Part shown: piece by piece, positions 15,102-51,593 of the stretch | How positions within the stretch are numbered: the first letter of the stretch is position 1 | Layout of the letters: each line of letters opens with the position of its first letter | Assembly (NCBI GenBank): GCA_031423695.1 | Contig: JANPGB010000286.1 | Location: 1 to 53,423 of the forward strand | DNA length: 53,423 bases | Reading direction: 5' to 3' | Origin: Verrucomicrobiota bacterium | Lineage (GTDB): Bacteria; Verrucomicrobiota; Verrucomicrobiia; Limisphaerales; CAIQOK01 | Notes under the pieces: model-generated | Databases searched by the model: none | What the model was told of the DNA's origin: nothing | Seen by the model: only the letters and a program-made list of their open reading frames with translations | Translations under genes and position numbers: made by a program

Positions 15102-15287
15102 ACACAATTAAGACACATCTGGAGTCATTGTCTTAGACGAATTCAAGTCGTTCGTGCGCATCGGCCTAACAGTGAGTTGACGCCTCGATTTGCAGCCTAT
15201 CAAGTTTCATGTTTGGACGTTATTTCCGACGCAATGGGTTGTCGAACCCAAAGTTTTTCCCGCGATGCTGCAGTCACGAGGAACATC

Positions 15288-15455
15288 GTAGCGGCAGGCA
15301 TCCTTGCCTGCCGTAGAGCCGTGGCTTCCAGCCCGGCGGAAAAAACTCACTGCCACCCGAACGCTAGAAACTTTCGGGAGCGCTCACGCATTCGTCCGTC
15401 TGTTCCGGGCGGCAGGATGCCGCCCTCTACGTCAGGCAAGGATGCCTGACGCTAC
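15288..15455. repeat. MITE-like element, family D
   Basis: The left end gtagcggcaggcatccttgcctgccgtagag matches the reverse complement of the right end ctctacgtcaggcaaggatgcctgacgctac at 29 of 31 positions. Each end is itself a hairpin (ggcaggcatccttgcctgcc). Confidence 0.7.
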
Positions 15456-15465
15456 GCCCCCGTCT

Positions 15466-23855: not shown

Positions 23856-24818
23856 ATGACCACAAAAATTAATTCCCGCAACCAGCCCCCCACCTCCGTC
23901 GTCACCGGCGCCGCCGGCTTTCTCGGCTCGCACCTGACCGACCTCCTGCTCGCGCGCGGGCACAAGGTCATCGGCATTGACAATTTTGTCACCGGCAGCG
24001 TGGACAACATCGCGCATCTCGGCGGCAACAAGAACTTCAAATTCCTCGAGCAGGACGTCACGGAATTCCTGTTTCTCGAAGGCCCGGTGAACTACGTCTG
24101 GCATTTCGCGTCGCCGGCCAGCCCGATTGATTATCTTCAGATCCCGATCAAAACCCTCAAGGTCAGTTCGCTCGGCACGCACAAGGCGCTGGGTCTGGCG
24201 AAGCACAAAGGCGCGCGGTTCTTCATCGCCTCGACCTCGGAGGTGTACGGCGATCCGCTCGTGCATCCACAGCCGGAGGAATACTGGGGCAACGTCAACA
24301 CCATCGGCCCGCGCGGCTGTTACGACGAAGCCAAGCGTTTCGCCGAAGCGCTGACGATGGCGTATCATCGCGAGCACAAAGTCGAGACGCGCATCGTGCG
24401 AATCTTCAACACCTACGGCCCGCGCATGAGAATCAACGACGGCCGCGTCGTCCCGGCGTTCATCAGTCAAGCGTTGAAGAACAAACCCATCACCATCTTT
24501 GGCCAGGGCACGCAGACGCGCAGCTTTTGTTACTACGCGGATTTGATCGAAGGCATCTATCGCCTGATGATGAGCGATTACGATCTGCCGATGAACATTG
24601 GCAATCCGACCGAGCTGACGATGCTGCAGTTCGCCGACCAGATCATTCGCGCGACCGGTTCAAAGAGCAAAGTGGTTCACAAGCCGTTGCCGCAGGACGA
24701 TCCGAAACAACGCAAGCCGGACATCACGAAGGCGAAAAGGATTTTGAAATGGGAACCGAAAGTGGCGCTCGCGGAGGGGTTGACCAAGACGATTGAATAT
24801 TTTCGGACGAAGGTTTGA
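23856..24818 (+). CDS. uxs: UDP-glucuronate decarboxylase (UDP-xylose synthase)
   Basis: [13 protein letters not shown]; [15 protein letters not shown]; [29 protein letters not shown]; [13 protein letters not shown]. Confidence 0.9.
24712..24818 (+). repeat. 107-bp direct repeat, copy 1 (functional 3' end of uxs)
   Basis: Identical to 25314-25420 except for 5 mismatches (hand alignment). Confidence 0.9.
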
Positions 24819-25313: not shown

Positions 25314-25420
25314 GCAAGCCGCACATCACGAAGGCGAAAAAGATTTTGAAGTGGGAACCGAAAGTGGCGCTGGCGGAAGGGTTGACCAAGACGATTGAAT
25401 ATTTTCGGACGAAGGTTTGA
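25314..25420 (+). repeat. 107-bp direct repeat, copy 2 (orphan uxs 3' end fragment)
   Basis: In the uxs frame it encodes [34 protein letters not shown]-stop. There is no upstream coding continuity. Confidence 0.9.
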
Positions 25421-29852: not shown

Positions 29853-30346
29853 TGTCTGATCCCGCAAAAACGGAAACGTCATCCATCCGGCAGCGCGCCC
29901 CGACGCTCTACCTCATCATTGCGATCAAGCTGTTGAAGGGCGTCGCCCTGCTGCTGCTGGCCCTGGGCGCCTACAGCCTTTCGGACAACAACCTGCCGGA
30001 GGATTTTCGCCGCTTCCTGGAGTTTCTCCATTTCGACCCGGAGAAAAAATTCTTCACCGACCTCGCCGAAAAGGTCGAAACCATCACGCCCGACAACCTC
30101 GTCTGGCTGGCGCGCGGCACCGTGCTCTACAGCCTGTTTTCCCTGGTGGAGGCGGTGGGCTTGTCCTTCCGCGTGTCGTGGGCCGGCTGGCTGGCCATCG
30201 GCGAATCTGCCTTCTTCATCCCCATCGAGTTTCATGAATTGATGCGCGGTTTTTCCTGGACCGTGCTGGCCATCCTGCTGTTGAACATCCTGATCGTCTG
30301 GTATCTCTTCCAGAACCGCGGCCGCCTGTTCCGGCATCATCATTGA
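29852..30346 (+). CDS. DUF2127 family membrane protein
   Basis: The ATG overlaps the glyQS stop (TGATG). LYLIIAIKLLKGVALLLLALGAY...LYSLFSLVEAVGLSFRVSWAGWLA...FIPIEFHEL. Confidence 0.8.
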   Translation: MSDPAKTETSSIRQRAPTLYLIIAIKLLKGVALLLLALGAYSLSDNNLPEDFRRFLEFLHFDPEKKFFTDLAEKVETITPDNLVWLARGTVLYSLFSLVEAVGLSFRVSWAGWLAIGESAFFIPIEFHELMRGFSWTVLAILLLNILIVWYLFQNRGRLFRHHH

Positions 30347-30416
30347 TTTTTTCCGGCGTGACCGGTGGAAATTAATTTGGCAACGTCCCCCCCAACGCGC
30401 CCGAAAACATTTGAAC

Positions 30417-31862
30417 ATGAACGCCGAACTGCCTTTCGAGATTTCCGAATTCGAACACCTGCTGCAAAAGCCCAACAGCGACGCTTCAGGCTTGGCCAGC
30501 TTTTTCACGGCGGGCGAAATCTGGGTCACCCGCGTCCCCGCCCGGCTCGATGTCATGGGCGGCATCGCGGATTATTCGGGCTCCAACGTCTGCGAATCCG
30601 TCCTCGGCCGCGGTGTGTTGATGGGGCTCCAGTCGCGCACCGACCGCACCCTGCGCATCCGCACCATGCAGGCCGGCATCCGCTCGCTGCCCATCGAAAC
30701 GCGCGTGTCGCTCGACTTTTTCAAATCCGGCGACGGCCTCGCAGGCTACGCGGAAATCCGCGCGCTTTGCCAGGCCAATCCGCTCGCCAACTGGGCGGCC
30801 TACATTGTCGGCAGCATCTTCACGCTGCTCAAAGAGGAGGGCGTGAAACTTCCCTACGGTTTCAATCTGCTCCTGTTGAGCGCGGTGCCGATGAACGTCG
30901 GTATCGGCAGTTCCGCCGCCGTGGAGATCGGCACGCTGAGTTCGCTCAACGCCTATCTTGGTTTGAAACTTTCGCCCTCGCGCATCGCCCGGCTCGGTCA
31001 GATGTCCGAGAACCACGTCGTCGGCGCGCCCTGCGGCATCATGGATCAAACCGCCATCACCAGCGGACGCCAGGGTTGTCTCACCCACATTCTCTGCCGC
31101 CCCGGTGAGGTGAAGGGCGAGGTGCAGATTCCGCCGGGCACCGCGTTCGTCGGCATCAACTCCATGGTCCGCCATTCTGTCGCCGGCAGTCCGTACAGCG
31201 ACACCCGCATCGGCGCGTTCATGGGCAAGAAGATCATCAACGAACTCCGCGCCCAGACCGGTCGCAGCCCGCTCGACTACCTCACGGAACTGTCTGTCGC
31301 CCAGTTCAACTCCGAATATGCCGCGCAACTTCCCATCGAACTGGTCGGCTCCAAATTTCTCGCGCACTACAAAACCCACGACGATCCCGTCACCAAAATC
31401 CAACCCGACGCCACCTATTGCGTGGCCGGCCCCACACGGCATCCAGTCGAGGAAAACGAACGCGTGCTCAAGTTCATGGACGCCTTGCGCGCCGCGAAGA
31501 CGGGTGATGAATCCCCGCTCATCACCGCCGGCGAATGCATGTATGGCGCGCACGACAGCTACAAGAACAACTGCCATCTCTCGACCGAGGAGGTGGATTT
31601 TCTCGTGGACGCCGTCCGGCAACGCGGAACCAAGTCCGGTCTTTACGGCGCGAAGATCACCGGCGGCGGCACTGGCGGCGCGGTGGCAGTGTTCGGCAAA
31701 GTGGACGCGCTGAAAAAGCACATCCCCGAAATCGCCACGGAATATTCCCGCCGCATCGGCGTGATGCCGGACATCTTTGAAGGCACCTCGCCCGGCGCGA
31801 TTGAATTCGGCGCACGCCGCTATGCGTTTGGCGCGAAGGGGTGGCAGCGGTTTGAGGTTTAG
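30417..31862 (+). CDS. GHMP sugar-1-kinase, plant L-arabinokinase-like
   Basis: VTRVPARLDVMGGIADYSGSNVCE resembles the arabinokinase/galactokinase motif. VPMNVGIGSSAAVE is the GHMP ATP motif. GAKITGGGTGGAVAVF is also present. ATG at 30417; the track start at 30411 is TTG. Confidence 0.8.
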   Translation: MNAELPFEISEFEHLLQKPNSDASGLASFFTAGEIWVTRVPARLDVMGGIADYSGSNVCESVLGRGVLMGLQSRTDRTLRIRTMQAGIRSLPIETRVSLDFFKSGDGLAGYAEIRALCQANPLANWAAYIVGSIFTLLKEEGVKLPYGFNLLLLSAVPMNVGIGSSAAVEIGTLSSLNAYLGLKLSPSRIARLGQMSENHVVGAPCGIMDQTAITSGRQGCLTHILCRPGEVKGEVQIPPGTAFVGINSMVRHSVAGSPYSDTRIGAFMGKKIINELRAQTGRSPLDYLTELSVAQFNSEYAAQLPIELVGSKFLAHYKTHDDPVTKIQPDATYCVAGPTRHPVEENERVLKFMDALRAAKTGDESPLITAGECMYGAHDSYKNNCHLSTEEVDFLVDAVRQRGTKSGLYGAKITGGGTGGAVAVFGKVDALKKHIPEIATEYSRRIGVMPDIFEGTSPGAIEFGARRYAFGAKGWQRFEV

Positions 31863-31937
31863 AGCCTTGAAACACACAAAATGACATGAAAAATTATGCA
31901 TTCCTTACGTGTATTTCGTAGTTAATTGTTTTGTCCT

Positions 31938-32309
31938 ATGCTTTGGGAAGACCAAGAATTAAACCACGCTACTCCCGAAACAAAATTCCCCGAGGTTTTT
32001 TTCACGAGTCTTGAATTGCCTAGTCTCGCAGAAAGAAAGTCGGGTGACTATTTGTTGGTGGATCAGGAGAAGCTAGACGCGATGATTAAAACGGGTGAAC
32101 TGGGTAGCCGAACAAAGGGGGTAAGAATTAAAAGGCTTTGTATGTTTTTCCGTTTATTTTGCAGTCTTGGACCAGGTGAAGAGCATTATCCAACTTTAGG
32201 AGTCATGCATTTCTGGAGTAATTCTGTCAGCAAGTATGCCATCTTTTGTTTTTCTCCAAATAACGACTGGCTGAAGGTCCTTGTGGTTACTGCATCAGCC
32301 CCCGCTTGA
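31938..32309 (+). CDS. Orphan ORF in an AT-rich insert (weakly supported)
   Basis: The only sizeable ORF in the visibly AT-rich 31870-32305 segment. I recognise no family. It overlaps the start of the next gene. Confidence 0.3.
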   Translation: MLWEDQELNHATPETKFPEVFFTSLELPSLAERKSGDYLLVDQEKLDAMIKTGELGSRTKGVRIKRLCMFFRLFCSLGPGEEHYPTLGVMHFWSNSVSKYAIFCFSPNNDWLKVLVVTASAPA

Positions 32310-32311
32310 AA

Positions 32312-33451
32312 ATGAATTCACAATCCATCGTCCGTAAAGCCGTCATCCCCATCGCCGGACTCGGCACCCGGCATTTTCCCGCGTCGCACGCGGTGAAGAA
32401 GGAGATGTTTCCCGTCGTCGGCCCGGACGGCATCGCCCGCGCGCTGTTTCACTACCACCTGCTCGAACTCGACGCGGCGGGCATTGAGGAAATCTGCATC
32501 ATCGTCCAGCCCGGCGAAGACGAAATGGTGCGCGACTATCTGCGTGGCCCGAGCAGCGACTATCTCAAGCGGCTGGAGAAATATCCGGCGCTCTTGCGCG
32601 AAGCCGAGCAGATGAAAAACTTCGCCGACCGCGTCACCTTCGCCGTGCAGCGCGAGCAGGAGGGCTACGGCCACGCGGTTTACCAGACCAAACAGTTTGC
32701 CGCTGGTGAAATGGTGTTGCTGGGTCTCGGCGATCATCTGTTTCGCGGCGCGCCGGTTGAGTCTGCTCCCTCTCCCCGCCCAAGCGGGGAGAGGGCTGGG
32801 GTGAGGGGAGTTGAAATAATTGCTCCTCCTCACCATGAACCTGCCTGCGACTTTGGGACTCTCTCTCCCCCCGAGGAACGAGTGGGGAGCGAGCTGGAGA
32901 GAGGGGCCGCTCAACAAAAACTTACGGCCTCCTCTCCCCAGCCCTCTCCTCCCTCGGGGGAGGAGAGGGAGAAAAAAACAGCCCACGCCACAAGTAAATC
33001 TCCCTATCAAGAACTCGCGGAGATGGCGAAAGTTTCGCAAGGTCGCAGCGTCTCCGCCGTAAACCGCATTTCCGCCGGTGAACTGAAAGGCTACGGCACC
33101 ATCGCCGGCCAGCGACGCGCGCAAAACCCAAGGCTGATTGACGTTTCGCTCATCATTGAGAAACCCGCCGTCGCCATTGCCAAAGAAAAACTTCACGTCA
33201 ACGATCTGCCGGACGAAACGTGGCTGGGCTGGTTCGGGATGCACCTGCTCTCGCCGAGCATCTACGACGTGCTGGGCGAAATGATCCGCGACAACATCCG
33301 CGACAACGGCGAATTTCAACTCACCCGCGCCCAGGAAATCCAACGCCAGCGCGAAGGCTATCTCGCACTGGAGATGACCGGTGCGCGGCGCTTCGACTTC
33401 GGCGTGCCCGATGATTTCGTCCGCAGCGTGCAGGCGTTCCGGCAGGGGTAG
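32312..33451 (+). CDS. UTP--sugar-1-phosphate uridylyltransferase-like (GalU/UDP-sugar pyrophosphorylase family) carrying an in-frame repeat insertion
   Basis: KAVIPIAGLGTRHFPASHAVKKEMFPVV (nucleotidyltransferase G-loop) and QREQEGYGHAV...LLGLGDHLF. About 69 repeat-derived codons follow (SPRPSGERAGVRG...SPPSGEEREK). The family then resumes with VSAVNRISAGELKGYGTIAG. Confidence 0.8.
   Translation: MNSQSIVRKAVIPIAGLGTRHFPASHAVKKEMFPVVGPDGIARALFHYHLLELDAAGIEEICIIVQPGEDEMVRDYLRGPSSDYLKRLEKYPALLREAEQMKNFADRVTFAVQREQEGYGHAVYQTKQFAAGEMVLLGLGDHLFRGAPVESAPSPRPSGERAGVRGVEIIAPPHHEPACDFGTLSPPEERVGSELERGAAQQKLTASSPQPSPPSGEEREKKTAHATSKSPYQELAEMAKVSQGRSVSAVNRISAGELKGYGTIAGQRRAQNPRLIDVSLIIEKPAVAIAKEKLHVNDLPDETWLGWFGMHLLSPSIYDVLGEMIRDNIRDNGEFQLTRAQEIQRQREGYLALEMTGARRFDFGVPDDFVRSVQAFRQG
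32766..32971. repeat. MITE-like element, family C, copy 1 (inside a CDS, in frame)
   Basis: The left arm is ccctctccccgc-ccaa-gcggggagaggg-ctggggtgagggg (32768-32808). The right arm is cctctccccagccctctcctccctcgggggaggagaggg (32931-32969). The arms are inverted copies and each contains its own hairpin. Confidence 0.75.
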
Positions 33452-33511
33452 GGTGGGCGTTGTCGCGCTGCGACGTGGAACGCCGCTCGTCGCAGCGCGA
33501 CGAGTCCCACC
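33448..33511. repeat. GC-rich hairpin element, family H-like, copy 2
   Basis: Perfect 14-bp stem gtcgcgctgcgacg (33462-33475) / cgtcgcagcgcgac (33488-33501), framed by gtagggtggg...cccacc. It overlaps the stop codon at 33449-33451. Confidence 0.6.
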
Positions 33512-33556
33512 AGATTTCCCGTGACCGTTTCACCGGAGTGCGTATTATTTCCCGCG

Positions 33557-34312
33557 ATGACCATCATCGAAGCCCATAAACTGCTCGAACAGTTCCGCGC
33601 CGGCGGCGTCAGCCGCGAGAAGGTCGTGCAATCCTTTCAAGCCGCGCCGCTGGCCGATCTGGGCTTCGCGCAGGTGGACACGCATCGCGCGCTGCGTAGC
33701 GGTTTTCCGGAAGTGATTTTTGGCGCGGGCAAGACGCCCGATCAAGTCGTCGGCATTGCCGCCAAGCTGGTGGAACGGGAAGAACGCGTACTCGTCACCC
33801 GCGTGACGCCGGAACACGCTAAAGCCGTCCGCAAAAAATTTAAGTCGGTCATCCATCACGAACTGGCCCGCTGCCTGACCATTGATAAAAAACCTCTGCC
33901 GAAACGCAGCGGAACCATCGCGGTGATCTGCGCGGGCACCAGCGATCTGCCGGTGGCGGAGGAGGCGGCGATCACCGCCGAGATCATGGGCAACCGCGTG
34001 GAACGCATCGTGGATGCCGGCGTCGCCGGACTGCATCGGCTGCTTGCGCGATTGGAAACCCTTCAGCGCGCAAACGTGCTGGTGGTCGTGGCGGGGATGG
34101 AGGGCGCGCTGCCCAGCGTGGTCGCAGGCTTGGTGTCCAAGCCGGTCATCGCCGTGCCGACCAGCATTGGCTACGGCGCGAGTTTTGGCGGATTGGCGGC
34201 GCTGCTTGGCATGTTGAACAGCTGTGGGAGCGGCGTGACGGTGGTGAATATTGACAACGGGTTTGGGGCCGGCTTTGCGGCCAGCCAGATCAATGCTTTG
34301 GCCGGAGATTAA
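33557..34312 (+). CDS. larB: Nickel-pincer cofactor biosynthesis protein LarB (AIR-carboxylase-like)
   Basis: In-frame ATG at 33557. DTHRALRSGFPEVIFGAGKTP; IAVICAGTSDLPVAEEA; VVVAGMEGALPSVVAGLVSKPVIAVPTSIGYGASFGGLAALLGMLNSC. Confidence 0.85.
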   Translation: MTIIEAHKLLEQFRAGGVSREKVVQSFQAAPLADLGFAQVDTHRALRSGFPEVIFGAGKTPDQVVGIAAKLVEREERVLVTRVTPEHAKAVRKKFKSVIHHELARCLTIDKKPLPKRSGTIAVICAGTSDLPVAEEAAITAEIMGNRVERIVDAGVAGLHRLLARLETLQRANVLVVVAGMEGALPSVVAGLVSKPVIAVPTSIGYGASFGGLAALLGMLNSCGSGVTVVNIDNGFGAGFAASQINALAGD

Positions 34313-34318
34313 TCAACC

Positions 34319-35779
34319 ATGAAATCACTCTATCTCGATATTTTCAGCGGCATCAGCGGCGACATGTTCATTGGCGCGCTGATTGACCTCGGCGCGGATG
34401 CCGACAAGCTGACGCGGACGTTGGGCAAACTCAAACTGGACGGCTACCATCTGCATGTTTCCCGCCAGCACAAGTCCTCCATCGAAGGGGTGAAGTTCGA
34501 CGTGCACCTGGCGCATGGTCACGAACACGGCCATGGTCACGAACACGGGCATGGTCACGAACACGGGCATGGACATGGCCACAATCATCAGCATCATGAC
34601 CACAGCCACGGGCACAATCCTGCACCTGGCCACGGCCATAGCCACGCCCACGGCCACGAACATTTTCATGAACCGCCGCCGCCGCCGGATCTGGATTTCG
34701 AGCCGGATCCCGATCACGTGGACTACATTGACCCTGAGCAGCAGCATCTTCAGCACGACGACAGCCGCAACTTTTCGGAAATCAAGAAGCTGATCGCCAA
34801 AAGCAAACTCTCGGCGTGGGTGAAGCAAAAGTCCGTTGCCGTATTTCAGCGCATCGCCGAGGCGGAGGGAAGAATCCACGGGATGCCGGCGGCGAAAGTT
34901 CATTTCCACGAAGTCGGCGCGGTGGACTCCATCGTGGACATCGTCGGGGCCTGTATCGCGCTCGAGTTGCTCGGCAAACCCCGGGTGGTGGCCTCAACCG
35001 TGATCGAGGGCGTCGGCTGGGTGGATTGCGAACACGGACGCTTTCCCATTCCTGCGCCCGCCACACTGGCCATCCTCGGCGCGCGCGGCGTGGGCGTAAC
35101 GCAATGTGAAGAACCGCACGAGCTCATCACCCCGACCGGCGCGGCGCTGCTGGCCGAGTTTGCCGAAAGCTTCGGCCCGATGAACGGGCTGGTGGCGGAG
35201 AAGATCGGCTTCGGCCTCGGCACGCGGGACAATCACACGCGCCCGAATGTGCTGCGCGCGGTGCTGGGCACGGCGTCCACAGTCCAAAGCCCAAAGTCTA
35301 AAGTTGCGGCCGCTGGCGCTTCGGCGCTTGATTGGGAAACGGACCGCGTGGCGGTGCTCGAAACAAATCTCGACGACCTCAACTCGGAAATCCTCGGCCA
35401 CTTCGTCGAAACCGTCCTGGCAGCGGGGGCGTTGGATGTGTTTTACAAGCCAATCCAGATGAAGAAAAACCGGCCCGGGGTTTTGCTCACGGTCCTGTGC
35501 GGCGAGGCGGACGCAGACAAGTTCAGCGAACTGATACTGCGCGAGACGAGCGCGTTCGGGGTGCGTCGGCACCTGTGCGAGCGGCGGAAGTTGAAACGGG
35601 ATTTCACCGAGATCAAAACCGCGTACGGCAAGGTCACGGTGAAACTCGGAAAACTCGGCGGCAAAGTCATCCAGGCCGCACCGGAATTCGAGTCGTGCAA
35701 AAAAGCCGCCGCCACGGCCGGGGTTCCGGTGAAACTGGTTTATGAAGCGGCGGGCAAAGCCTTGAACGCGGTCAAGTAA
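34319..35779 (+). CDS. larC: Nickel insertion protein LarC (DUF111) with an extended His-rich tract
   Basis: MKSLYLDIFSGISGDMFIGALIDLG; HGHEHGHGHEHGHGHEHGHGHGHNHQHHDHSHGH; HFHEVGAVDSIVDIVG; C-terminal KKNRPGVLLTVLC. Confidence 0.85.
   Translation: MKSLYLDIFSGISGDMFIGALIDLGADADKLTRTLGKLKLDGYHLHVSRQHKSSIEGVKFDVHLAHGHEHGHGHEHGHGHEHGHGHGHNHQHHDHSHGHNPAPGHGHSHAHGHEHFHEPPPPPDLDFEPDPDHVDYIDPEQQHLQHDDSRNFSEIKKLIAKSKLSAWVKQKSVAVFQRIAEAEGRIHGMPAAKVHFHEVGAVDSIVDIVGACIALELLGKPRVVASTVIEGVGWVDCEHGRFPIPAPATLAILGARGVGVTQCEEPHELITPTGAALLAEFAESFGPMNGLVAEKIGFGLGTRDNHTRPNVLRAVLGTASTVQSPKSKVAAAGASALDWETDRVAVLETNLDDLNSEILGHFVETVLAAGALDVFYKPIQMKKNRPGVLLTVLCGEADADKFSELILRETSAFGVRRHLCERRKLKRDFTEIKTAYGKVTVKLGKLGGKVIQAAPEFESCKKAAATAGVPVKLVYEAAGKALNAVK
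34514..34567 (+). repeat. 3 x 18-bp tandem repeat encoding (HGHEHG)3 inside larC
   Basis: Direct read: catggtcacgaacacggc / catggtcacgaacacggg / catggtcacgaacacggg. Confidence 0.85.
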
Positions 35780-35788
35780 CCTGGCCGC

Positions 35789-36895
35789 TCACCGGTTTTT
35801 CACGAACAATTTTCCGGGCAGCTGTTTCACCGCCCGCTTCATCTCCAGTCCCAGCAGCGCCACGCTCACCGCCGAACTCGGCAGACCGCTGCGGCGGATG
35901 ACTTCGTCAATGGTGGATTCCTCGGGCGTCAGCGCGTCGAACACCTTCTGCTCGTTGCCGCTCAATTCCAGCGCGGGCAGCACGCCGGTTTCGCCCGCGC
36001 CCGGCGGACGGTTGCTGGCTGGAAACAAATATTCGAACTCGCTCAACACATCCTCGGCGCCCTCGCAGAGTTTCGCGCCCTTCTTGATCAGCTCGTGGCA
36101 GCCTTTGCTGCGCGGCGAATCAATCCGCCCCGGCACGGCAAACACCTGCCGGCCCGCCTCCACCGCCATGTTCGCCGTGATGAGCGCGCCGCTGGTCAGG
36201 TTGGCTTCCACCACGACCGTGCCCAGCGTCATGCCGGCGACGATGCGGTTGCGGATGGGAAAACTTTGCTTGTCCGCCGGGCGGTTGAAGGGAAATTGCG
36301 TGATGACCGCGCCGTTCTCGGTGATGCGCTGGAACAGGTCGGCGTTTTCGGGCGGGAAAATCTAATTGATGCCCGTGCCCAGCACCGCCACCGTGCGGCC
36401 CTTCGCCGCGAGCGCGCCTTGATGCGCGGCGGTGTCAATGCCGCGCGCGCCGCCGCTCACGACCGTGACGCCGACGTAGGCGAGCTGATACGCCAGCTTG
36501 CGCGCGGTCTCGATGCCGTAATGCGTCGTCATTCGTGATCCAACCAGCGCCACGGCGTTGTTGTCCTTGGCCGTCAGCGCGCCCTTCACGTAGAGGACGA
36601 TGGGTGGGTCGTAAATTTGCCGGAGCAGGGCGGGATAGGTTTCGTCGGCTTGCGTGAGGACATGGCAGCCAAATTCCCGAATGCGCCGGAGTTCGCCGGC
36701 CAGGTCTGCGGACTTTTCCCAAAGGGAAATGTTTTCGGCGGTGTCTTCGCCGATGCCGCGCACTTGCAGCAGCTGTTGCTTTGAAGCCTTGAGAATCGCG
36801 GGCGCCTCGCCGAAATGGTCCAGGAGCTGGCGCACGCGCACCGGGCCGACGCCTTCGATGAGATTCAGCGCGATGAGAGCTTCCCGGGATTCCAT
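35789..36895 (-). pseudogene. dprA: DNA-processing protein DprA/Smf interrupted by one in-frame TAG (36362-36364)
   Basis: Track ORFs 36362-36982 and 35789-36232 are in the same frame (offset 573 nt). My translation across the gap reads GTGIN-TAG-IFPPENADLFQRITENGAVITQFPFNRPADKQSFPIRNRIVAGMTLGTVVVEA. This is the conserved DprA core with no frameshift. The ATG is at 36895 (MESREALIALNLIEGVGP). Confidence 0.75.
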
Positions 36896-36968
36896 GCTTG
36901 GGGAATATCGGGTTTCGGTTGGAGGCGCAAGCAGTTCCTCAGTCGCCCAAAGACTCGGAGGGAGTTGC

Positions 36969-37126
36969 ACCGCGAAACACACGAACTACACGAAAAAACA
37001 CAGAACAAGTCGGACGAAGCGCCACTTGCCTGACCGAAACACACATCCGGATTTGGAAACTCAGGATATGCTAAAAAGCTGAACGCCTTCCGCTCCCCAT
37101 TTTGTATAGTTCGTGTGTTTCGCGGT
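36969..37126. repeat. MITE-like element, family F (22-bp terminal inverted repeats)
   Basis: accgcgaaacacacgaactaca (36969-36990) matches the reverse complement of tatagttcgtgtgtttcgcggt (37105-37126) at 21 of 22 positions. This symmetry explains why two spurious track ORFs both begin with MCFAV. Confidence 0.75.
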
Positions 37127-37142
37127 TAAAATTCAGTCCGAC

Positions 37143-37892
37143 TCACTCGCCCTGTTCCAACGACGCCAGCACTTCGGGGTCGCGCACGTCCACCCAGCGG
37201 CCCTCGATTTTCAGGCCGGCGATCCGGTGATGCGTCTCCAGCAGGGCATTGATGGCGTCGGTCAGTTCATATTCGCCGCGCGGGGATTTGTGCAGCTTGG
37301 CGGTGAACTCGAACAGCGAGGATTTGAAGATGTAGATGCTGGCGTTGTACCACACTGGTTGACCGGGCTTGAGCCAGCCGTCCTCGCGCAACTGCTCAAC
37401 CTGTTCCGCCGTGGGTTTCTCCACAATCCGCAACAGACAGAACTGATCGTCAAAGAAATCCAGCCCGCCCTTGGTCACATCCTGACCCCCGGTAACGGTC
37501 GTGAGGCCGGAAAAATAGCCCTCGTTGAAGCGATGGATCATTTGCTGATACGTCTCCGGCTTTACCAGGATGTCGCCGTAGGTGAGCAGAAAGGACGAAG
37601 TGCCGATGAATTCCTTCGCCAGTTCGGGCGCCTTGCCCGTGCCGTCCTGGACAACCTGGCGGCCGTAGGCGATCCGCACCTTCCATTTCGAGCCGTCCCC
37701 GAAATAATTCTCGATGACCTCGGCGCGAAAGCCCGTGACGATGAAAATGTCGTGGATGCCGGAGGCGATCAGGCCCAGGAGGATATGTTCGAGGATGGGT
37801 TTGCCCTGCACCAGGAGCATGGGTTTGGGCAGCTCGTTGGTGAGCTCCCGCATGCGGGTGCCTTTGCCGGCGGCGAGAATGACTGCTTTCAT
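37143..37892 (-). CDS. Sugar-phosphate nucleotidyltransferase (NTP_transferase family)
   Basis: MKAVILAAGKGTRMRELTNELPKPMLLVQGKPILEHIL...LLTYGDILV. Confidence 0.85.
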   Translation of the reverse strand: MKAVILAAGKGTRMRELTNELPKPMLLVQGKPILEHILLGLIASGIHDIFIVTGFRAEVIENYFGDGSKWKVRIAYGRQVVQDGTGKAPELAKEFIGTSSFLLTYGDILVKPETYQQMIHRFNEGYFSGLTTVTGGQDVTKGGLDFFDDQFCLLRIVEKPTAEQVEQLREDGWLKPGQPVWYNASIYIFKSSLFEFTAKLHKSPRGEYELTDAINALLETHHRIAGLKIEGRWVDVRDPEVLASLEQGE

Positions 37893-37985
37893 TTCCCACA
37901 GGTGAACACAGTTGGCAACGGATGAAAAAGAAAAAATTCTCGAAACTTGTGCGCACGGATGCGGTCGTGCATTGCCATTATTTTT

Positions 37986-38091
37986 TCTCCCTCTGCGCCC
38001 CCGAGGGAGAAGGGGTCGGGGTGAGGCGGCATCATTGTTCCAGCCAAATTCTTCTCACCCCAACCCTCTCCCCGCCTGGCGGGGAGAGGGA
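37986..38091. repeat. MITE-like element, family C, copy 2 (short, intergenic)
   Basis: The left arm is tctccctctgcgcccccgagggagaaggggtcggggtgagg. The right arm is cttctcaccccaaccctctccccgcctggcggggagagggag. These are the same arms as at 32766-32971. Confidence 0.75.
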
Positions 38092-38162
38092 GTCCGAACA
38101 GTTGCCACCGCGCGCCACGATAAGAGATTGCTTCCGCGCCGGTCAAAAGCTCAAATACTCCC

Positions 38163-38942
38163 ATGATGGCCAAACGAGTCATTCCCTGTCTCGACGTTCA
38201 CGACGGCAAAGTCACGCGCGGCGTCCAGTTCGGCGTCGCCGAAAAGGGCGGCCTGCGCAACGTGGGCGATCCCGTCGAGCTGGCCCTGCGCTACAACGAA
38301 CAGGGCGCGGACGAAATGGTGTTCTTCGACATCACCGCCACCGCGCACGGTCGCGGCACGATGGTCGAGGTGATCGAGCGCGCCGCCGACCAATGCTTCA
38401 TGCCGCTCACCGTCGGTGGCGGCATCAAATCCGTGGACGACATGTACACGATGCTCCGCGCGGGGGCGGACAAGATCAGCATCAATTCCAGCGCGCTCGC
38501 CCGGCCCGAACTCATCCGCGAAGGCGCGGAGAAATTCGGCAGCCAGTGCATTGTCGTGTCGATTGACGCAAAGCGCACCACGCCGGGCGTGGACCAATGG
38601 GGCGTGTTCTCGCACGGCGGCCGCAAAGACACCGGCCTCGACGCTGTCGAATGGGCCAAGCGCGCCGTGGCGCTCGGCGCGGGCGAGATTGTGTTGAACT
38701 CGATTGACGCGGACGGAATGAAGACCGGCTTCGACCTCGTCATCACCCGCCGCGTCAGCGAATCCGTGGGTGTGCCGGTGGTGGCCAGCGGCGGCGCGGG
38801 CAGATTGGAACACATGGCCGAAGTGCTGGTGGAAGGCCGGGCCGACGCCGTCCTGGCCGCGAGCATTTTCCATTTTGGGACTTACACCGTGGGGGACGTG
38901 AAGAAGTTTTTGGCGGAGAAGCAAATTCCGGTGCGGCTCTAG
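38163..38942 (+). CDS. hisF: Imidazole glycerol phosphate synthase, cyclase subunit
   Basis: [20 protein letters not shown]...[13 protein letters not shown]...PLTVGGGI...GADKISINS...[14 protein letters not shown]. Confidence 0.95.
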
Positions 38943-39030
38943 GTGCTCCTAGCCACGGACGAACGCTAGTCCAAAGATTTGTCCAGGCCAAGCGCCGCGG
39001 CACTGACGGCGCCGGAGGCGCGGTGGAAAG

Positions 39031-39176
39031 TAGCCCGAGGTGAAACCGTGGGCTTGGTGGTCAAAAGAAATTCAAGCCCCGGATGGGGCGGGAGAAAATC
39101 ATCAACGAACATTCCTTTCGCCTCCGCCGCCGCTTTATTTGTTTGCGCATGTTTGCCCTCGGTTTCACCGTGGGCT
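39031..39176. repeat. Nested-palindrome element, family A, copy 2
   Basis: The ends are tagcccgaggtgaaaccgtgggc and gccctcggtttcaccgtgggct. It aligns with the reverse complement of 3628-3780. Confidence 0.7.
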
Positions 39177-39352
39177 CTTTTCGGACGTTGTTGAAATCCT
39201 TCATGCATTCCGTTTACAAGACGCCACAAGGGGGATTGTGGAGGGGTTGAAGCCGATCCGGAGCAGTGCGCCGGAAGCAATGACTGGCCAGATTCGCAGG
39301 GCGCGTCCGTCGGCGGTCTCGCTCGCCAGTGAAACGCAAAGGTTCCGCCACC

Positions 39353-39802
39353 TCAGCGACGGGGTCGCAGCAGGATGGCCTTCTTGTCCGTGCCTTCCAC
39401 TTCCACGCTGTGCGTCTCCACGCCCGGATCATCCTTGAGCGCATGGTGGATGATGCGGCGGTCGAAGGCGCTCAACGGTTCGAGCTCCACCACGTCGCCC
39501 CATTTGCGGACTTTTTCGGCGGCTTCCTGGGCCTTCTTGAGGAGCGCTTCGCGGGCCTGCGCGCGGTAGCCGCCCACGTCCACCAGAACTTTCGGCGCGG
39601 TGGGATCCTGCTGAAAGAGCAGCCGGTTGGTGATGTATTGCAGGTCGGAAAGGGTCTGGCCTTGGCGGCCGATCAGGCGGCCCGAGTCGTCGTTTTTGAC
39701 CTCGAGCAGCACGCCGTCATCGAGGGCATGCTCTTCGACGGTGGACGGGAAGCCGAGCAGTTCCAGGATTTTTTCCAGGGTGGCTTTCGGTTGGGCAGTC
39801 AT
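39353..39802 (-). CDS. jag: Jag/KhpB-type RNA-binding protein (KH plus R3H domains, short form)
   Basis: LIGRQGQTLSDLQYI (KH-like GxxG) and LEPLSAFDRRIIHHAL (R3H). It lies downstream of yidC. Confidence 0.85.
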   Translation of the reverse strand: MTAQPKATLEKILELLGFPSTVEEHALDDGVLLEVKNDDSGRLIGRQGQTLSDLQYITNRLLFQQDPTAPKVLVDVGGYRAQAREALLKKAQEAAEKVRKWGDVVELEPLSAFDRRIIHHALKDDPGVETHSVEVEGTDKKAILLRPRR

Positions 39803-39843
39803 GATTCGTTAAGGGTTGGAGGTGTTCAGTCGGGCGGCAGAAA

Positions 39844-41643
39844 TTATTTGCTCTTTTTCAGGGCCGGCTTCGCGACGACGGCGGTGACGGGCTCGGTCTT
39901 GATCATTTTGGTCTGGAGGATCGTCAGCAGGTTGCTAACGGTCCAGTAGAGCGCCAGGCCGGCCGAGTTATTGTAAAAGAACACCATGAACATGAGCGGC
40001 ATGTAGCGCATCATTTTCTGCTGCGCGGGATCCATGCCGGGCGACGGCGGGGTGAGATGCGCCTGCCAGAGCATGGTCGCGCCCATCAGCAGCGGGAGCA
40101 GGTTGAAGGGCAGCCCCATGCCCGGGACGCCGATCACGGGGATGAAATCCAGTCCGGGAATATTGAAGAGCGTGTCGGGCTTGGACAGGTCGGCGATCCA
40201 GAAGAAGCTCGCGCCGCGCAGCTCGATGGCGGTGCGCACCATGAACACGAAGCCGAAGAACACCGGCATCTGGAGCAGCATCGGCAGACAGCCGCCGAGC
40301 GGGCTGACCTTGTTCTCCTTGTAGAACTCCATCACCTTCTTGTTCATCTTGACCGGGTCTTCCTTGTATTTTTCCTGGATCAACTTCATCTGCGGCTGGA
40401 GCGCCTGCATGCGTTTCATGGAGCGCGTGCTCGCCTGCGTGAGCGGCCAGAAGAGCAGCTTGATGATGATCGTAATGGCGATGATGGCCCAGGCGTAGGA
40501 GAGCGACAGCACATCGTGCAGCCAGTTCATCCCGAGCAGGAGCGCCTTGGCAAAAAATCCAAAAAAGCCGCCGAAGCCCATGACCAGGTCAACCTCGTTC
40601 TTGAACCGGTCGGCGATGCGCGCCAGCGTCTGGTATTCCTTCGGCCCGGCAAAAAAGTCGAAACGCCGCTCCACCACGCCGCCCGGCACCAGCGTTACCG
40701 CCGGATACACCAGCATGGTCTCAAAACTCTTGAGCGGCGCGGAGTTTGAAAAGCTGTTGGGGCCCGTGAGTTGTCGCGGCAGGGTGATTTGCTCCGAGAC
40801 AATCTGCTGCGCCGGCTCGGCCGGCATGGTGATGAGAGCGAAAAACTGGTTCTGAACGGCGGCCCACACGACATTGCTCGCGCCCGCCTCGTAGCGGGTG
40901 CGCGGTGTGCCCGGAAAGCAGCCGAGATAACGATTGTCAAACCAGGCCTCGGTAATCTCCTGCTTCTTGGCACCGTCGTGCCACATGAGCCCCATCGCCT
41001 GGCCTTTGTCATCCGGATCCATCGGCGTCGGCGCGCCGATCACCCATTGCTGAGGAGCGAGGGCCAGCGGTTGTGCGGAGGTGTTCTCCAGCCGCGCCGT
41101 GGCGTGCAGGAGATAGTTGGTGCTCAACTCAAACTCCTTCACGATCCGCAGGCCGTTCGGGAGCAGCTGCTCGGCGTGCACACCGCCGGCCGTGCGGGTG
41201 AGCGCAAACACGCCGTCGCCTTGGACCGCGGCATCCCCAGCCAAAGCCAGCACCGGCACCGGCACATGGGTGTTCAGCGAGGCCAGATTGCTGGGGAGTG
41301 GCGGCTTCTGGTGTTGCCGCGAAATTTCTTCCGGGTAACGGACCAGTTCGATCTCCTTCAGGCCGCCGCCGTGCGTGGTGAAGATGTAGCGCGCGTTTTC
41401 ATTGGTCACCACCAGCAGTTCCTCCGGCGCGCCGGGGTGCGCGATGAAAGCGGCCGCCGAGGCCGCGGGTGTTGCCAAGACCGCGGGAGCCGCGCTGGCC
41501 GCGGCGGCGGGCTGGCTGGCGGCCGCGTTTGTGCCGGCGGGCAGCGCCGTCCGCGGTGGGGTGAATTTCGGGATTACGACCGTAACCCACAACACCAGCG
41601 TGCCCAGGCACGCGGCAATGACAATAATTGATTTGCGATCCAT
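39844..41643 (-). CDS. yidC: Membrane protein insertase YidC
   Basis: 599 aa with an N-terminal TM and a large periplasmic domain. The C-terminal core reads YAWAIIAITIIIKLLFWPLTQASTRSMKRMQALQPQM...GCLPMLLQMPVFFGF. Confidence 0.9.
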   Translation of the reverse strand: MDRKSIIVIAACLGTLVLWVTVVIPKFTPPRTALPAGTNAAASQPAAAASAAPAVLATPAASAAAFIAHPGAPEELLVVTNENARYIFTTHGGGLKEIELVRYPEEISRQHQKPPLPSNLASLNTHVPVPVLALAGDAAVQGDGVFALTRTAGGVHAEQLLPNGLRIVKEFELSTNYLLHATARLENTSAQPLALAPQQWVIGAPTPMDPDDKGQAMGLMWHDGAKKQEITEAWFDNRYLGCFPGTPRTRYEAGASNVVWAAVQNQFFALITMPAEPAQQIVSEQITLPRQLTGPNSFSNSAPLKSFETMLVYPAVTLVPGGVVERRFDFFAGPKEYQTLARIADRFKNEVDLVMGFGGFFGFFAKALLLGMNWLHDVLSLSYAWAIIAITIIIKLLFWPLTQASTRSMKRMQALQPQMKLIQEKYKEDPVKMNKKVMEFYKENKVSPLGGCLPMLLQMPVFFGFVFMVRTAIELRGASFFWIADLSKPDTLFNIPGLDFIPVIGVPGMGLPFNLLPLLMGATMLWQAHLTPPSPGMDPAQQKMMRYMPLMFMVFFYNNSAGLALYWTVSNLLTILQTKMIKTEPVTAVVAKPALKKSK

Positions 41644-46767: not shown

Positions 46768-47400
46768 TTTAGCCACGGATGGACACAGATGAAACACGGA
46801 TAAAGCAAAGTGAGCAAAGTGACCGAACCGCTCTTCATAGCAACCGAACGCTTTGACCCGACTGATGGGGAAAAGTGGCGGAAGTATTTTGAGTGGGCAA
46901 AAATTCCTGTACTGAAAGAAATCGTAAGTTTGGATACGTGTCTTTGCGGACACCTCATCAAAGACCTTTTGGATGATGATTGGAAGCACATTGTCTGCGA
47001 AGATTTTCGCTTAAGTTATTTCAAAGATTTGGATTATCTTTTACAGCGAGTTCTCGATGTGAAGCGCAGAAACATTCTTGGATTATACAGAAACCCTGTC
47101 GAACACATTGCAACCACACCGGCCAATCGCGATTTCAATTTTGTTGGATATGATTTGATTGAAGAGACAACTCAAATAAGCGCGTTAACAAATTGCGGTG
47201 GCTTTCCTGACGCGTTCAGCAATCAGGAGTTGAATTTTTCAGGCTTGATTTCAGAATTTGAGCGCGCAAGTGCAGTGAGGCAATTATTGATTGAAAAGTA
47301 TCCAGAAGAGGCACACGCCGATTGTGAAATGTATGCGGTTTGGAGATTAAGCGAATGAGTTTTTATCCGTGTTTCATCTGTGTTCAATCTGTGGCTAAAG
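46768..47400. mobile_element. Inverted-repeat-bounded cassette (family G arms) carrying one AT-rich ORF, filling the araB-araD spacer
   Basis: The left arm tttagccacggatggacacagatgaaacacggataaag (46768-46805) matches the reverse complement of the right arm tttatccgtgtttcatctgtgttcaatctgtggctaaag (47362-47400) at about 34 of 38 positions. The arms start 3 nt after the araB stop and end 10 nt before the araD ATG. Confidence 0.5.
46810..47358 (+). CDS. Hypothetical protein (passenger ORF of the IR-bounded cassette)
   Basis: 182-aa ORF with a GTG start, visibly AT-richer than the neighbours. It is the only long ORF between the arms. I recognise no family. Confidence 0.55.
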   Translation: MSKVTEPLFIATERFDPTDGEKWRKYFEWAKIPVLKEIVSLDTCLCGHLIKDLLDDDWKHIVCEDFRLSYFKDLDYLLQRVLDVKRRNILGLYRNPVEHIATTPANRDFNFVGYDLIEETTQISALTNCGGFPDAFSNQELNFSGLISEFERASAVRQLLIEKYPEEAHADCEMYAVWRLSE

Positions 47401-51499: not shown

Positions 51500-51508
51500 T
51501 CAATACTT

Positions 51509-51586
51509 GTAGGAGCCGACGTAAGGAGGCTCAAACTGGATTTGCATCTCACGATTTAATTAGAGCCTCCTTACGTCGGCTCCTGC
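51509..51586. repeat. Perfect 22-bp-stem hairpin (family E) between the binding-protein and ATPase genes
   Basis: aggagccgacgtaaggaggctc (51511-51532) is the exact reverse complement of gagcctccttacgtcggctcct (51563-51584). The loop is 30 nt. The ATPase ATG is at 51594. Confidence 0.85.
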
Positions 51587-51593
51587 AAAATTT

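Follow-up and report, generated by a model that had tools for sequence, protein, structure and literature searches.

In-frame REP/REPIN-like palindromic units at a repeatedly occupied codon junction of a GalU-like nucleotidyltransferase gene in Verrucomicrobiota

The subject of this study is a gene for a GalU-like sugar-1-phosphate nucleotidyltransferase that carries a palindromic DNA insert within its coding sequence. The gene lies in a stretch of 53,423 nucleotides (hereafter the window; contig JANPGB010000286.1 of assembly GCA_031423695.1) from an uncultured, free-living Limisphaerales (Verrucomicrobiota) bacterium of soil or freshwater. [quoted passage not shown] Here we compare the window with related loci (L followed by a number) and their proteins (P followed by a number); the named homologues and related contigs are Verrucomicrobiota, mainly Limisphaerales.

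Results

An insertion of 80 codons in frame

The features that are central to this section are:
32312 to 33451, plus strand: host gene, GalU-like sugar-1-phosphate nucleotidyltransferase (open reading frame list, PF00483, TIGR01099, orthologue model)
32759 to 32998, plus strand: whole insertion relative to empty-site orthologues, 240 nt or 80 codons, in frame and stop-free (DNA alignment, tblastn and blastn)

Segment 32759-32998 is an insertion relative to the closest orthologue; it keeps the frame and contains no stop codon. The empty-site orthologues P0006-P0008 (298 amino acids, about 95% identical) read GDHLFRGAPV/SPYRELAEMAK with nothing between V and S, and the empty DNA site of L001 and L002, which share 95% amino-acid and 90.6% nucleotide identity with the window, reads GCGCCGGT/ATCGCC, where the window has 240 additional bases. 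Searching with the two gene halves by tblastn likewise gave a gap of 240 nt, and blastn placed the breakpoints at 32757/32998, the boundaries being uncertain by about 1 nt. The host protein is 379 amino acids long with the insert, compared to about 298 in orthologues that lack it.

Both halves of the gene were recovered at 159 loci; the junction is empty at 127 of these, which include Planctomycetota and Fibrobacterota homologues. As the site is empty both in the closest orthologues and in homologues of distant phyla, the empty state is ancestral, and the possibility that the segment is ancestral protein sequence is ruled out by the same observation.

The open reading frame 32312-33451 stays open throughout the element, as the first-pass annotation had stated and as the list of open reading frames bears out. 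The alignment with orthologues lacking the segment, by which it had proposed to define the insert, gives a length that is a multiple of three, yet the gain amounts to 80 codons rather than the roughly 69 estimated then. The insertion exceeds the inverted repeat by 7 nt on the left and by 27 nt on the right.

Anatomy and folding of the insert

The insert is made up of the following parts:
32766 to 32810, plus strand: left arm unit, hairpin CCCTCTCCCCGC-CCAA-GCGGGGAGAGGG (32768-32795) followed by CTGGGGTGAGGGGAG (repeat search, registered units)
32811 to 32834, plus strand: spacer loop (32811-32822), then the stub of a truncated inverted arm, CTCCTCCTCACC (32823-32834), pairing with GGGGTGAGGGGAG (fold; comparison with L003 and L087)
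32835 to 32927, plus strand: allele-private inner piece that includes a degenerate third arm (about 32858-32908) and is missing from L003, L087 and L004
32928 to 32971, plus strand: right arm unit, inverted, CCTCCTCTCCCCAGCC and hairpin CCCTCTCCTCCC-TCGG-GGGAGGAGAGGG (32942-32969) (repeat search, registered units)
32970 to 32998, plus strand: A-run and tail AGAAAAAAACAGCCCACGCCACAAGTAAA (29 nt), common to C1 and D-type alleles

The inverted arms that had been annotated at 32766-32971 are real: segments 32766-32806 and 32931-32971, each of 41 nt, are 85% complementary, and each contains a perfect 12-bp hairpin (32768-32795 and 32942-32969). In place of the hairpin letters quoted at that time, the right arm reads a compensated variant of them, CCCTCTCCTCCC..GGGAGGAGAGGG. 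The arm motif had no match in 100 shuffles of the window, and the insert as a single strand folds at -128.9 kcal/mol (z = -6.2 compared to shuffled controls). The left arm unit is identical or almost so in L003, L087, L004 and L088.

A version of 138 nt is found at this junction in L003 and L087. It has the order left arm (hairpin and GGGGTGAGGGG), spacer, CCCCTCACCCC with the right-arm hairpin, A-run and tail, and its predicted fold is a row of three hairpins (-73.9 kcal/mol, z = -6.5). The window allele corresponds to this version with 102 nt added inside (about 32835-32936), and is the most elaborate allele seen, a C-type doublet with an extra degenerate arm unit and the longest insert of all. 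The degenerate unit, a third member of repeat family D1, lies in the orientation of the left arm, and the inner piece forms a long hairpin of its own; the local alignment of the unit with the left arm scores 29, the mean of shuffled sequences being 13.6 (p ~0.002). A direct duplication of the right arm and tail was rejected in favour of this degenerate arm, and no other copy of the private 93 nt (32835-32927) was found in the window and the fetched loci, about 1.05 Mb in all.

Read in this way, the insert of the window is a small cluster of arm, truncated inverted arm, degenerate arm, inverted arm and tail. In place of the single element described before, we thus find three to four hairpin units and a tail that resembles the remnant of an older, different hairpin element. 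An Rfam scan of 30000-40000 at E-values up to 1 gave nothing at gathering score, with microRNA-type sub-threshold matches on the hairpins, and a terminator scan of the coding strand found no terminator-like site within the element.

Frame, stop codons and selection on the host gene

The insert alleles used for the frame test are DNA retrieved regardless of reading frame. All 24 unique DNA alleles have lengths that are multiples of three (14 distinct lengths, from 15 to 240 nt). Among the 18 inserts of at least 51 nt, none has a stop codon in the host frame, while each of the other two frames is interrupted in 11 of the 18; no set of shuffled sequences was stop-free across all 18 inserts. As all lengths are multiples of three and stop codons are missing only from the host frame, the alleles fit selection for an open, translated insert.

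The host gene is under strong purifying selection in the lineages that carry inserts. The ratio of nonsynonymous to synonymous substitution rates (dN/dS) of the flanking codons is 0.046 between the window and L001, and 0.09-0.14 between insert-bearing pairs at dS 0.46-0.81; in addition, every residue that is invariant in the family is intact in the protein of the window. The insert peptide consists to 78% of P, S, G, E, A, R, K and Q, a composition typical of disordered sequence. Candidate tryptic peptides unique to the insert are, for example, GVEIIAPPHHEPACDFGTLSPPEER, VGSELER and LTASSPQPSPPSGEER.

Changes of frame were seen only in four MFD-labelled metagenome-assembled genomes, which we take to be long-read assemblies. 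L031 and L053 shift upstream of the junction. In L011 (~4430-4446) and L016 (~4430-4443), both species representatives, the frame is shifted by a single added base that lies upstream of the junction at a distance of about 6 nt; this base (T and G, respectively) stands outside a homopolymer and may stem from an error of assembly or mark an imprecise excision.

Position of the insert in the protein fold

The AlphaFold model of the insert-bearing protein, made with 29 sequences, was unusable (predicted local distance difference test score, pLDDT, of 42.7), and for that reason the insert-free orthologue P0006 was modelled instead with 94 sequences, giving a pLDDT of 80.5 and a predicted template modelling (TM) score of 0.83. 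A Foldseek comparison of this model with GalU structures gave TM-scores of 0.70-0.80 to 5i1f, 5vct, 3juk and 7b1r. In the model the junction V148/S149 belongs to a coil of five residues (145-149) that links strand 141-144 to helix 150-159, where model confidence is locally lower, and a HMMER alignment places an indel between the host family and Burkholderia GalU at the same point. The insert-free model thus places the insert in a coil that connects secondary-structure elements, outside the core, a point in favour of the first-pass interpretation. The coil comes after the catalytic LGDHLF strand and would be a loop that the enzyme can afford to lengthen.

Unrelated hairpin families at one codon junction

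At least six unrelated hairpin families occupy the same junction in orthologues, within about 6 nt (the equivalent of 32758/32999 of the window), all of them in frame:
Family C (C1 and C2): the window, L003-L008, L087-L089, L093 and L094; arm units as in the window
Family D: L084; 27-bp perfect arms
Family E: L085; 16-bp arms
Family F: L086/L090 and L091/L092; termini AGTGGCAC...GTGCCACT
L095-type: L095; 21-24 bp arms
L096-type: L096; compound hairpin

The types P0020 and P0100, seen in protein only, and short alleles of five or six additional residues are found at the junction as well. Free copies of the F type reside elsewhere, in L033 (2783-2848) and in L091/L092 (892-974), with compensated differences in the internal stem and no target-site duplication, indicating that family F is dispersed through these genomes. 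On an unbootstrapped neighbour-joining tree of 140 unique DNA alleles we count at least 16 changes between empty and occupied states, or 20 when the type of element is counted. The window falls in a clade together with four C1 alleles, one each of types D and E, and two empty alleles, one of which is that of the sister locus L001. By comparison, no long insert was found elsewhere in the protein in an alignment of 29 sequences.

Several tails at the junction resemble one another. The tail of C1 and D alleles, AGCCCAYGCCRCA, matches the right terminus of the F type (ACGCCCATGCCACT), and L084 and L086 have an exact 9-mer, GCCCATGCC, in common. C2 tails end in ..CGCCACGGTTATT, as do C1 tails and the F terminus of L060, and the alleles of +15 and +18 nt contain the F-arm 8-mer GCCCGTGC. 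These matches suggest that the tail derives from an F-type hairpin.

The presence of an insert is associated with the codon three residues past the junction, Q or R of SPY[Q/R]EL (33008-33010 in the window): Q is found in 24 of the 38 insert-bearing alleles, which are mostly Q, and in 17 of the 112 empty alleles, which are mostly R (Fisher p = 5e-8, not corrected for phylogeny). At the empty site the R codon of SPYREL forms part of a 6-bp TTCGCG/CGCGAA repeat.

Contigs L060 (1-38), L098 (1-76) and L099 (1-175) begin in an F-type or C2-type element at the junction, as expected where a repeat or strain heterogeneity breaks assemblies; in L099 the right arm is joined to unrelated coding-looking sequence and is possibly a chimera. 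In the metagenome-assembled genome of L069 (3150-3420) the upstream GHMP-family kinase gene is fused, after about codon 95, to the nucleotidyltransferase about 8 nt before the junction, which represents either a misassembly or a deletion of about 2.5 kb, one end of which lies at the hotspot.

Conserved arms and a drifting spacer

Between orthologous inserts the p-distance is 0.085 for the left arm and 0.15 for the right arm, whereas the proportion of synonymous differences (pS) of the host gene is 0.48. In the C2 trio, spacer and tail differ by about 0.43-0.47 in addition to indels, and the host pS is 0.39-0.40; as the divergence of spacer and tail equals host pS, these parts undergo neutral drift, constrained only to stay open. 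The differences between arms lie in the hairpin loops or are paired changes of the stem, and not at synonymous sites; examples of compensated stems are C:G versus T:A at one position and GC/GC versus CAT/ATG at the top. Moreover, the right arm of C2 alleles is read in a frame other than that of C1 (PPHPALSPxGGEG), so that conservation extends to the DNA but not to the peptide. By these comparisons the arms appear as conserved as the enzyme's own coding sequence, with stems kept paired by compensated differences.

Other copies of the repeat and its class

The window holds one further copy of the element:
37981 to 38091, no strand assigned: second family-C doublet in opposite orientation, shorter, intergenic between divergently transcribed neighbours

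This copy is flanked by a minus-strand gene (37143-37892) and by hisF (from 38163), and it is the shorter intergenic copy that had been annotated before. The repeat unit is about 45 nt long with an imperfect palindromic core, and it occurs as singlets (L010 6213-6257, L073 4906-4950 and L076 4896-4940) and as inverted doublets, two of them in the window and others in L003-L006, L008 and L087-L089, in which the units are conserved and the spacers vary in length and sequence. The stems of all 24 units that could be registered are 8-14 bp long with at most one mismatch.

With MITEs the element shares terminal inverted repeats (the 41-nt arms; the intergenic copy is built alike) and a small multi-copy form that lacks a transposase gene (the basic element of 138 nt has no open reading frame of its own). 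However, comparison of empty and filled sites shows no duplicated flank, and no target-site duplication was visible at the C-, D-, E- and F-type junctions, with the qualification that an old, decayed one is possible at the C site. Such a duplication is one defining feature that is missing for the label MITE given to the element before. A short unit with an imperfect palindromic core that is found as singlets, and an inverted pair of such units around a variable spacer that is capable of forming a hairpin, are what defines repetitive extragenic palindromic sequences (REPs) and the REP doublets called REPINs (definition in PMC3337134), and this architecture fits better. We therefore describe the insert as a cluster of REP/REPIN-like palindromic repeat units, an assignment made on architecture.

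Additional inverted-repeat elements are present in the window at 15287-15456, 36969-37126, 51507-51588 and 46780-47386, with arms of 25-32 nt that are 93-96% complementary and 24-557 nt apart, so that the window contains several hairpin families; the family at 15287 resembles the L095-type element. A direct repeat of 107 nt is found in two copies, 95% identical and 602 nt apart (24712-24818 and 25314-25420).

The host enzyme and its neighbourhood

The host open reading frame matches PF00483 (NTP_transferase) with E = 5.8e-10 and 39.6 bits, above the gathering cut-off of 21.2. Its score of 101.8 bits for the GalU equivalog TIGR01099 is below the cut-off of 326.8, and the match covers the N-terminal half of the protein and is interrupted by the insert. 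The nearest solved relatives by sequence are bacterial UDP-glucose pyrophosphorylases, at 22-29% identity. With GalU (PDB 5vct, 3juk and 2e3d) the host protein has in common the fold (TM-scores as above), the N-terminal GxGTRxxPxT-type motif and an LGD-type strand just ahead of the insertion point. It differs from GalU in having GDH where GalU usually has an ADD or PDD motif, in being paired with a GHMP kinase and in scoring far under the equivalog cut-off. Based on the low identity, the low score, the GDH motif and the kinase pairing, the substrate of the host enzyme is probably a sugar-1-phosphate other than that of GalU.

Upstream of the host gene lies:
30411 to 31862, plus strand: GHMP-family sugar kinase gene (open reading frame; PF00288 on syntenic genes)

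The kinase gene stands next to the host gene in most related loci as well, and PF00288 (GHMP_kinases_N) was found on the syntenic kinase genes of L001 and L086. As the kinase adjoins the host gene, the arrangement suggests a salvage pair of sugar-1-kinase and nucleotidyltransferase. Synteny between the window and L001 extends at 91% nucleotide identity, the gene being collinear on both sides of the insert by blastn.

The gap of 449 nt between kinase and nucleotidyltransferase (31863-32311) has 42% G+C compared to 60% in the window, and it stands where the syntenic L001 has a gene for a HEAT-repeat protein of 291 amino acids, of which no remnant was detectable in the gap. Downstream, 33521-34312 encodes a LarB-like protein (AIR carboxylase family in syntenic loci), and the adjoining open reading frame 34319-35779 a LarC-like nickel insertion protein, near the N-terminus of which an 18-nt tandem repeat (34513-34663) gives rise to a long His-rich run (HGHEHGHGHEHG...). 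A sub-threshold match to the Rfam Acido-Lenti-1 RNA was detected on the minus strand at 39008-39052 (25.8 bits compared to a gathering score of 37, E = 0.016).

Discussion

Based on our data we consider it likely that the 240 nt are a genuine in-frame insertion which is translated and tolerated by the enzyme. We propose that the insert would be transcribed and translated together with the gene as a stretch of 80 residues, probably disordered, that projects from an extendable loop; its translation is deduced from the statistics of frame and stop codons. Of the two possibilities that the first-pass annotation had left side by side, the tolerated loop is thus favoured by the dN/dS values and by the frame and stop statistics. 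Its description of a MITE read as protein stands with respect to the in-frame, tolerated insertion, and falls with respect to the single MITE, the element being composite and REPIN-like.

One alternative is that the window allele is a cryptic pseudogene, in which the 80 residues, and especially the private 102 nt, have killed the enzyme although the frame is open. It gains some weight from the length of the insert, the longest of all alleles, from the uniqueness of its inner piece, from its closeness in sequence to the GDH motif (8 residues past the catalytic-type Asp) and from the fact that the elements are poor in stop codons, about 40% of the off-frames being open as well. We nevertheless regard it as improbable. 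The flanks of the window gene are as constrained as stated above with all family-invariant residues in place, shorter versions of the insert have persisted in genes under purifying selection over considerable synonymous divergence, and the addition of 102 nt likewise has a length divisible by three and brings no stop codon into the host frame, whereas the whole 240 nt contain 2 and 3 stop codons in the other frames.

A translated insert might also have been put to use, the arm peptide (SPSPRPSGERxGVRG ... PSPP..EEREK) serving the enzyme as, for instance, a flexible linker or an interaction motif. The arms are indeed conserved like host coding sequence while spacer and tail are not, and arm peptides recur across many orthologues. 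Yet the right arm of C2 alleles is read in another frame, copies differ in loops and compensated stem positions and not at synonymous sites, unrelated elements with unrelated peptides are found at the same place and the closest relative has no insert at all, all of which makes such co-option quite improbable. We suggest instead that what maintains the arms is selection acting on the structure of the nucleic acid, or else gene conversion from other copies, and not a need for a particular peptide.

That the insert is present in the DNA and missing from the protein, through intron-like removal or ribosomal bypassing, is highly improbable: hairpins of this stability do occur in some bypass or self-processing elements, but skipping would give no reason for lengths that are always multiples of three and free of stop codons in the host frame only, no Rfam family reached its gathering score and six unrelated families would all need the same property. 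An assembly artefact, in which a repeat-induced misjoin placed the element in the gene, is just as remote; although the public contigs L060, L098 and L099 end within elements at the junction, showing that the site troubles assemblers, the same element, junction and flanks are found in independent assemblies of other studies (L003, L087, L004, L088 and L089), the gene is collinear with L001 on both sides and retention of the frame is not expected of a misjoin.

Why this codon junction is occupied time and again calls for an explanation of its own. The account that we put forward, tentatively, combines a permissive loop with nesting. The loop may be the only one of the protein that tolerates extra residues, and a first palindrome, probably an F-type hairpin, may have drawn further palindromic elements, as REPs are known to do; REP sequences are documented targets for other elements (PMC10969869). 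Excision or allelic replacement would then regenerate short scars and empty sites.

Selection might by itself be sufficient, in that insertions strike the gene at random positions and survive only where they are in frame and in the permissive loop, with neither target preference nor nesting. Such a process would leave surviving inserts that are all in frame and open, as we find, at a junction that is a coil of locally lower model confidence; the E-, L095- and L096-type alleles, whose exact insertion points differ by a few nucleotides and which carry no remnant of an earlier element, are likewise what it would leave. On the other hand, surface loops are numerous in an alpha/beta enzyme of this size (about 300 residues) and yet no long insert is seen elsewhere, the tail of C1 and D alleles resembles the F terminus and REP-type palindromes are known landing sites. 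The deletion endpoint of L069 and the two +1 frameshifts of L011 and L016 are also within 8 nt of the junction. We therefore regard selection alone as a rather unlikely explanation.

A more far-reaching proposal, which we consider unlikely at present, is that the junction is an actively targeted landing pad, at which REP-like families share a single-strand machinery of the RAYT (REP-associated tyrosine transposase) or IS200-like kind that inserts and excises precisely, with selection for frame acting afterwards. Were this true, mobile hairpins would be a reversible generator of variation in length and sequence of a surface loop, REP-type elements, deemed to be strictly extragenic, would regularly occupy an intragenic niche in Verrucomicrobiota, and the junction would provide a natural system in which insertion, nesting and precise excision can be watched.

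A number of observations weigh against the reading of a tolerated insert in a permissive, nested site. The junction is close to the Asp of GDH, which we take to be the counterpart of the metal-binding Asp of GalU enzymes, and the model of the insert-bearing protein itself was unusable. The private addition of 102 nt may be recent, and therefore purifying selection measured over the whole branch is no proof that this allele is active. The arm divergence of 0.085-0.15 is about what constraint at the protein level alone would yield. As to the site, nesting depends on short matches (the 9-mer and the 8-mer), the alleles of the E, L095 and L096 types are devoid of an F remnant and the counts of events come from a tree that was not bootstrapped. 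No shared recombined segment was found around the junction, the distance ratios being 0.887 for the proximal and 0.884 for the distal part (permutation p = 0.49), and accordingly the association of Q for R with inserts is not ascribed to local recombination. The TTCGCG/CGCGAA inverted repeat that brackets the empty junction was rejected as a target, being too weak (5.5 bp compared to 4.7 bp at controls).

REPs and REPINs, which are mobilised by RAYT transposases (Bertels and Rainey; PMC3337134, PMC3116915), resemble the units described here in their imperfect palindromes, in their occurrence as singlets and inverted doublets, in conserved units with variable spacers and in lacking a target-site duplication, and more complex clusters of units exist among them. 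The one-armed alleles L007, L093 and L094 resemble the products of central excision of REPINs described in PMC3337134. Unlike REPs, which are by definition overwhelmingly extragenic, the copy studied here and its orthologous alleles are intragenic and in frame, and whereas REPINs are best characterised in Pseudomonas and enterobacteria, these units come from Verrucomicrobiota.

Intragenic MITEs, such as the enterobacterial RU and ERIC elements (PMC2759123) and QMITE1 and QMITE2 of Coxiella (PMC5896051), are similarly small, non-autonomous and hairpin-forming, and overlap or fuse with open reading frames. The terminal inverted repeats of classic MITEs are flanked by direct target-site duplications, none of which is visible at our element, and the intragenic cases of these two reports are mostly overlaps with gene ends or with hypothetical open reading frames. 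In the window, by contrast, the host is a conserved enzyme for which purifying selection was measured, and the element resides in an internal loop of it.

The closest parallel in mode of action is provided by the Rickettsia palindromic elements (RPEs), short palindromic repeats found in frame in metabolic genes and regarded as compatible with the fold and the function of the protein (Ogata and colleagues, cited after the summary in PMC10969869). According to that summary, RPEs of about 100-150 bp are situated in frame in unrelated housekeeping and metabolic genes whose products are functional, and are translated with the host protein at sites predicted to be tolerated by the fold; our element, too, is inserted in frame in a gene that purifying selection and the frame and stop statistics mark as functional, at a coil position, with translation deduced in this case. 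The likeness is one of mode of action, the sequence families being presumably unrelated. The hosts differ, obligate intracellular Alphaproteobacteria as opposed to free-living Verrucomicrobiota, and so does what is kept: RPEs are described in the same source as encoding a conserved peptide, whereas here the DNA of the arms is conserved and the frame of an arm can differ.

As RPEs of Rickettsia and intragenic MITEs are already known, our element does not represent a new category. What is new is the phylum, the families of elements, the quantitative evidence for retention of the frame and the combination of conserved arms with a neutral spacer inside a coding sequence. New as well is that unrelated families occupy one codon junction repeatedly and with turnover, which we did not find in the literature searched, the coverage of which was incomplete.

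To our knowledge, the in-frame survival of selfish palindromes within genes has mostly been documented in Rickettsia and regarded as a curiosity of reduced genomes. The same outcome is reached here in free-living, uncultured Verrucomicrobiota, with unusually clean population-genomic evidence. Inserts of this kind split domain matches, as seen in the Pfam and GalU hits that stop at the insert, and break metagenome assemblies, and therefore annotators should expect them. Finally, a junction that is repeatedly colonised and can revert makes it possible to put to the test what guides the choice of targets by REP-like elements, whether their excision is precise and how much disordered load the loop of an enzyme can carry.

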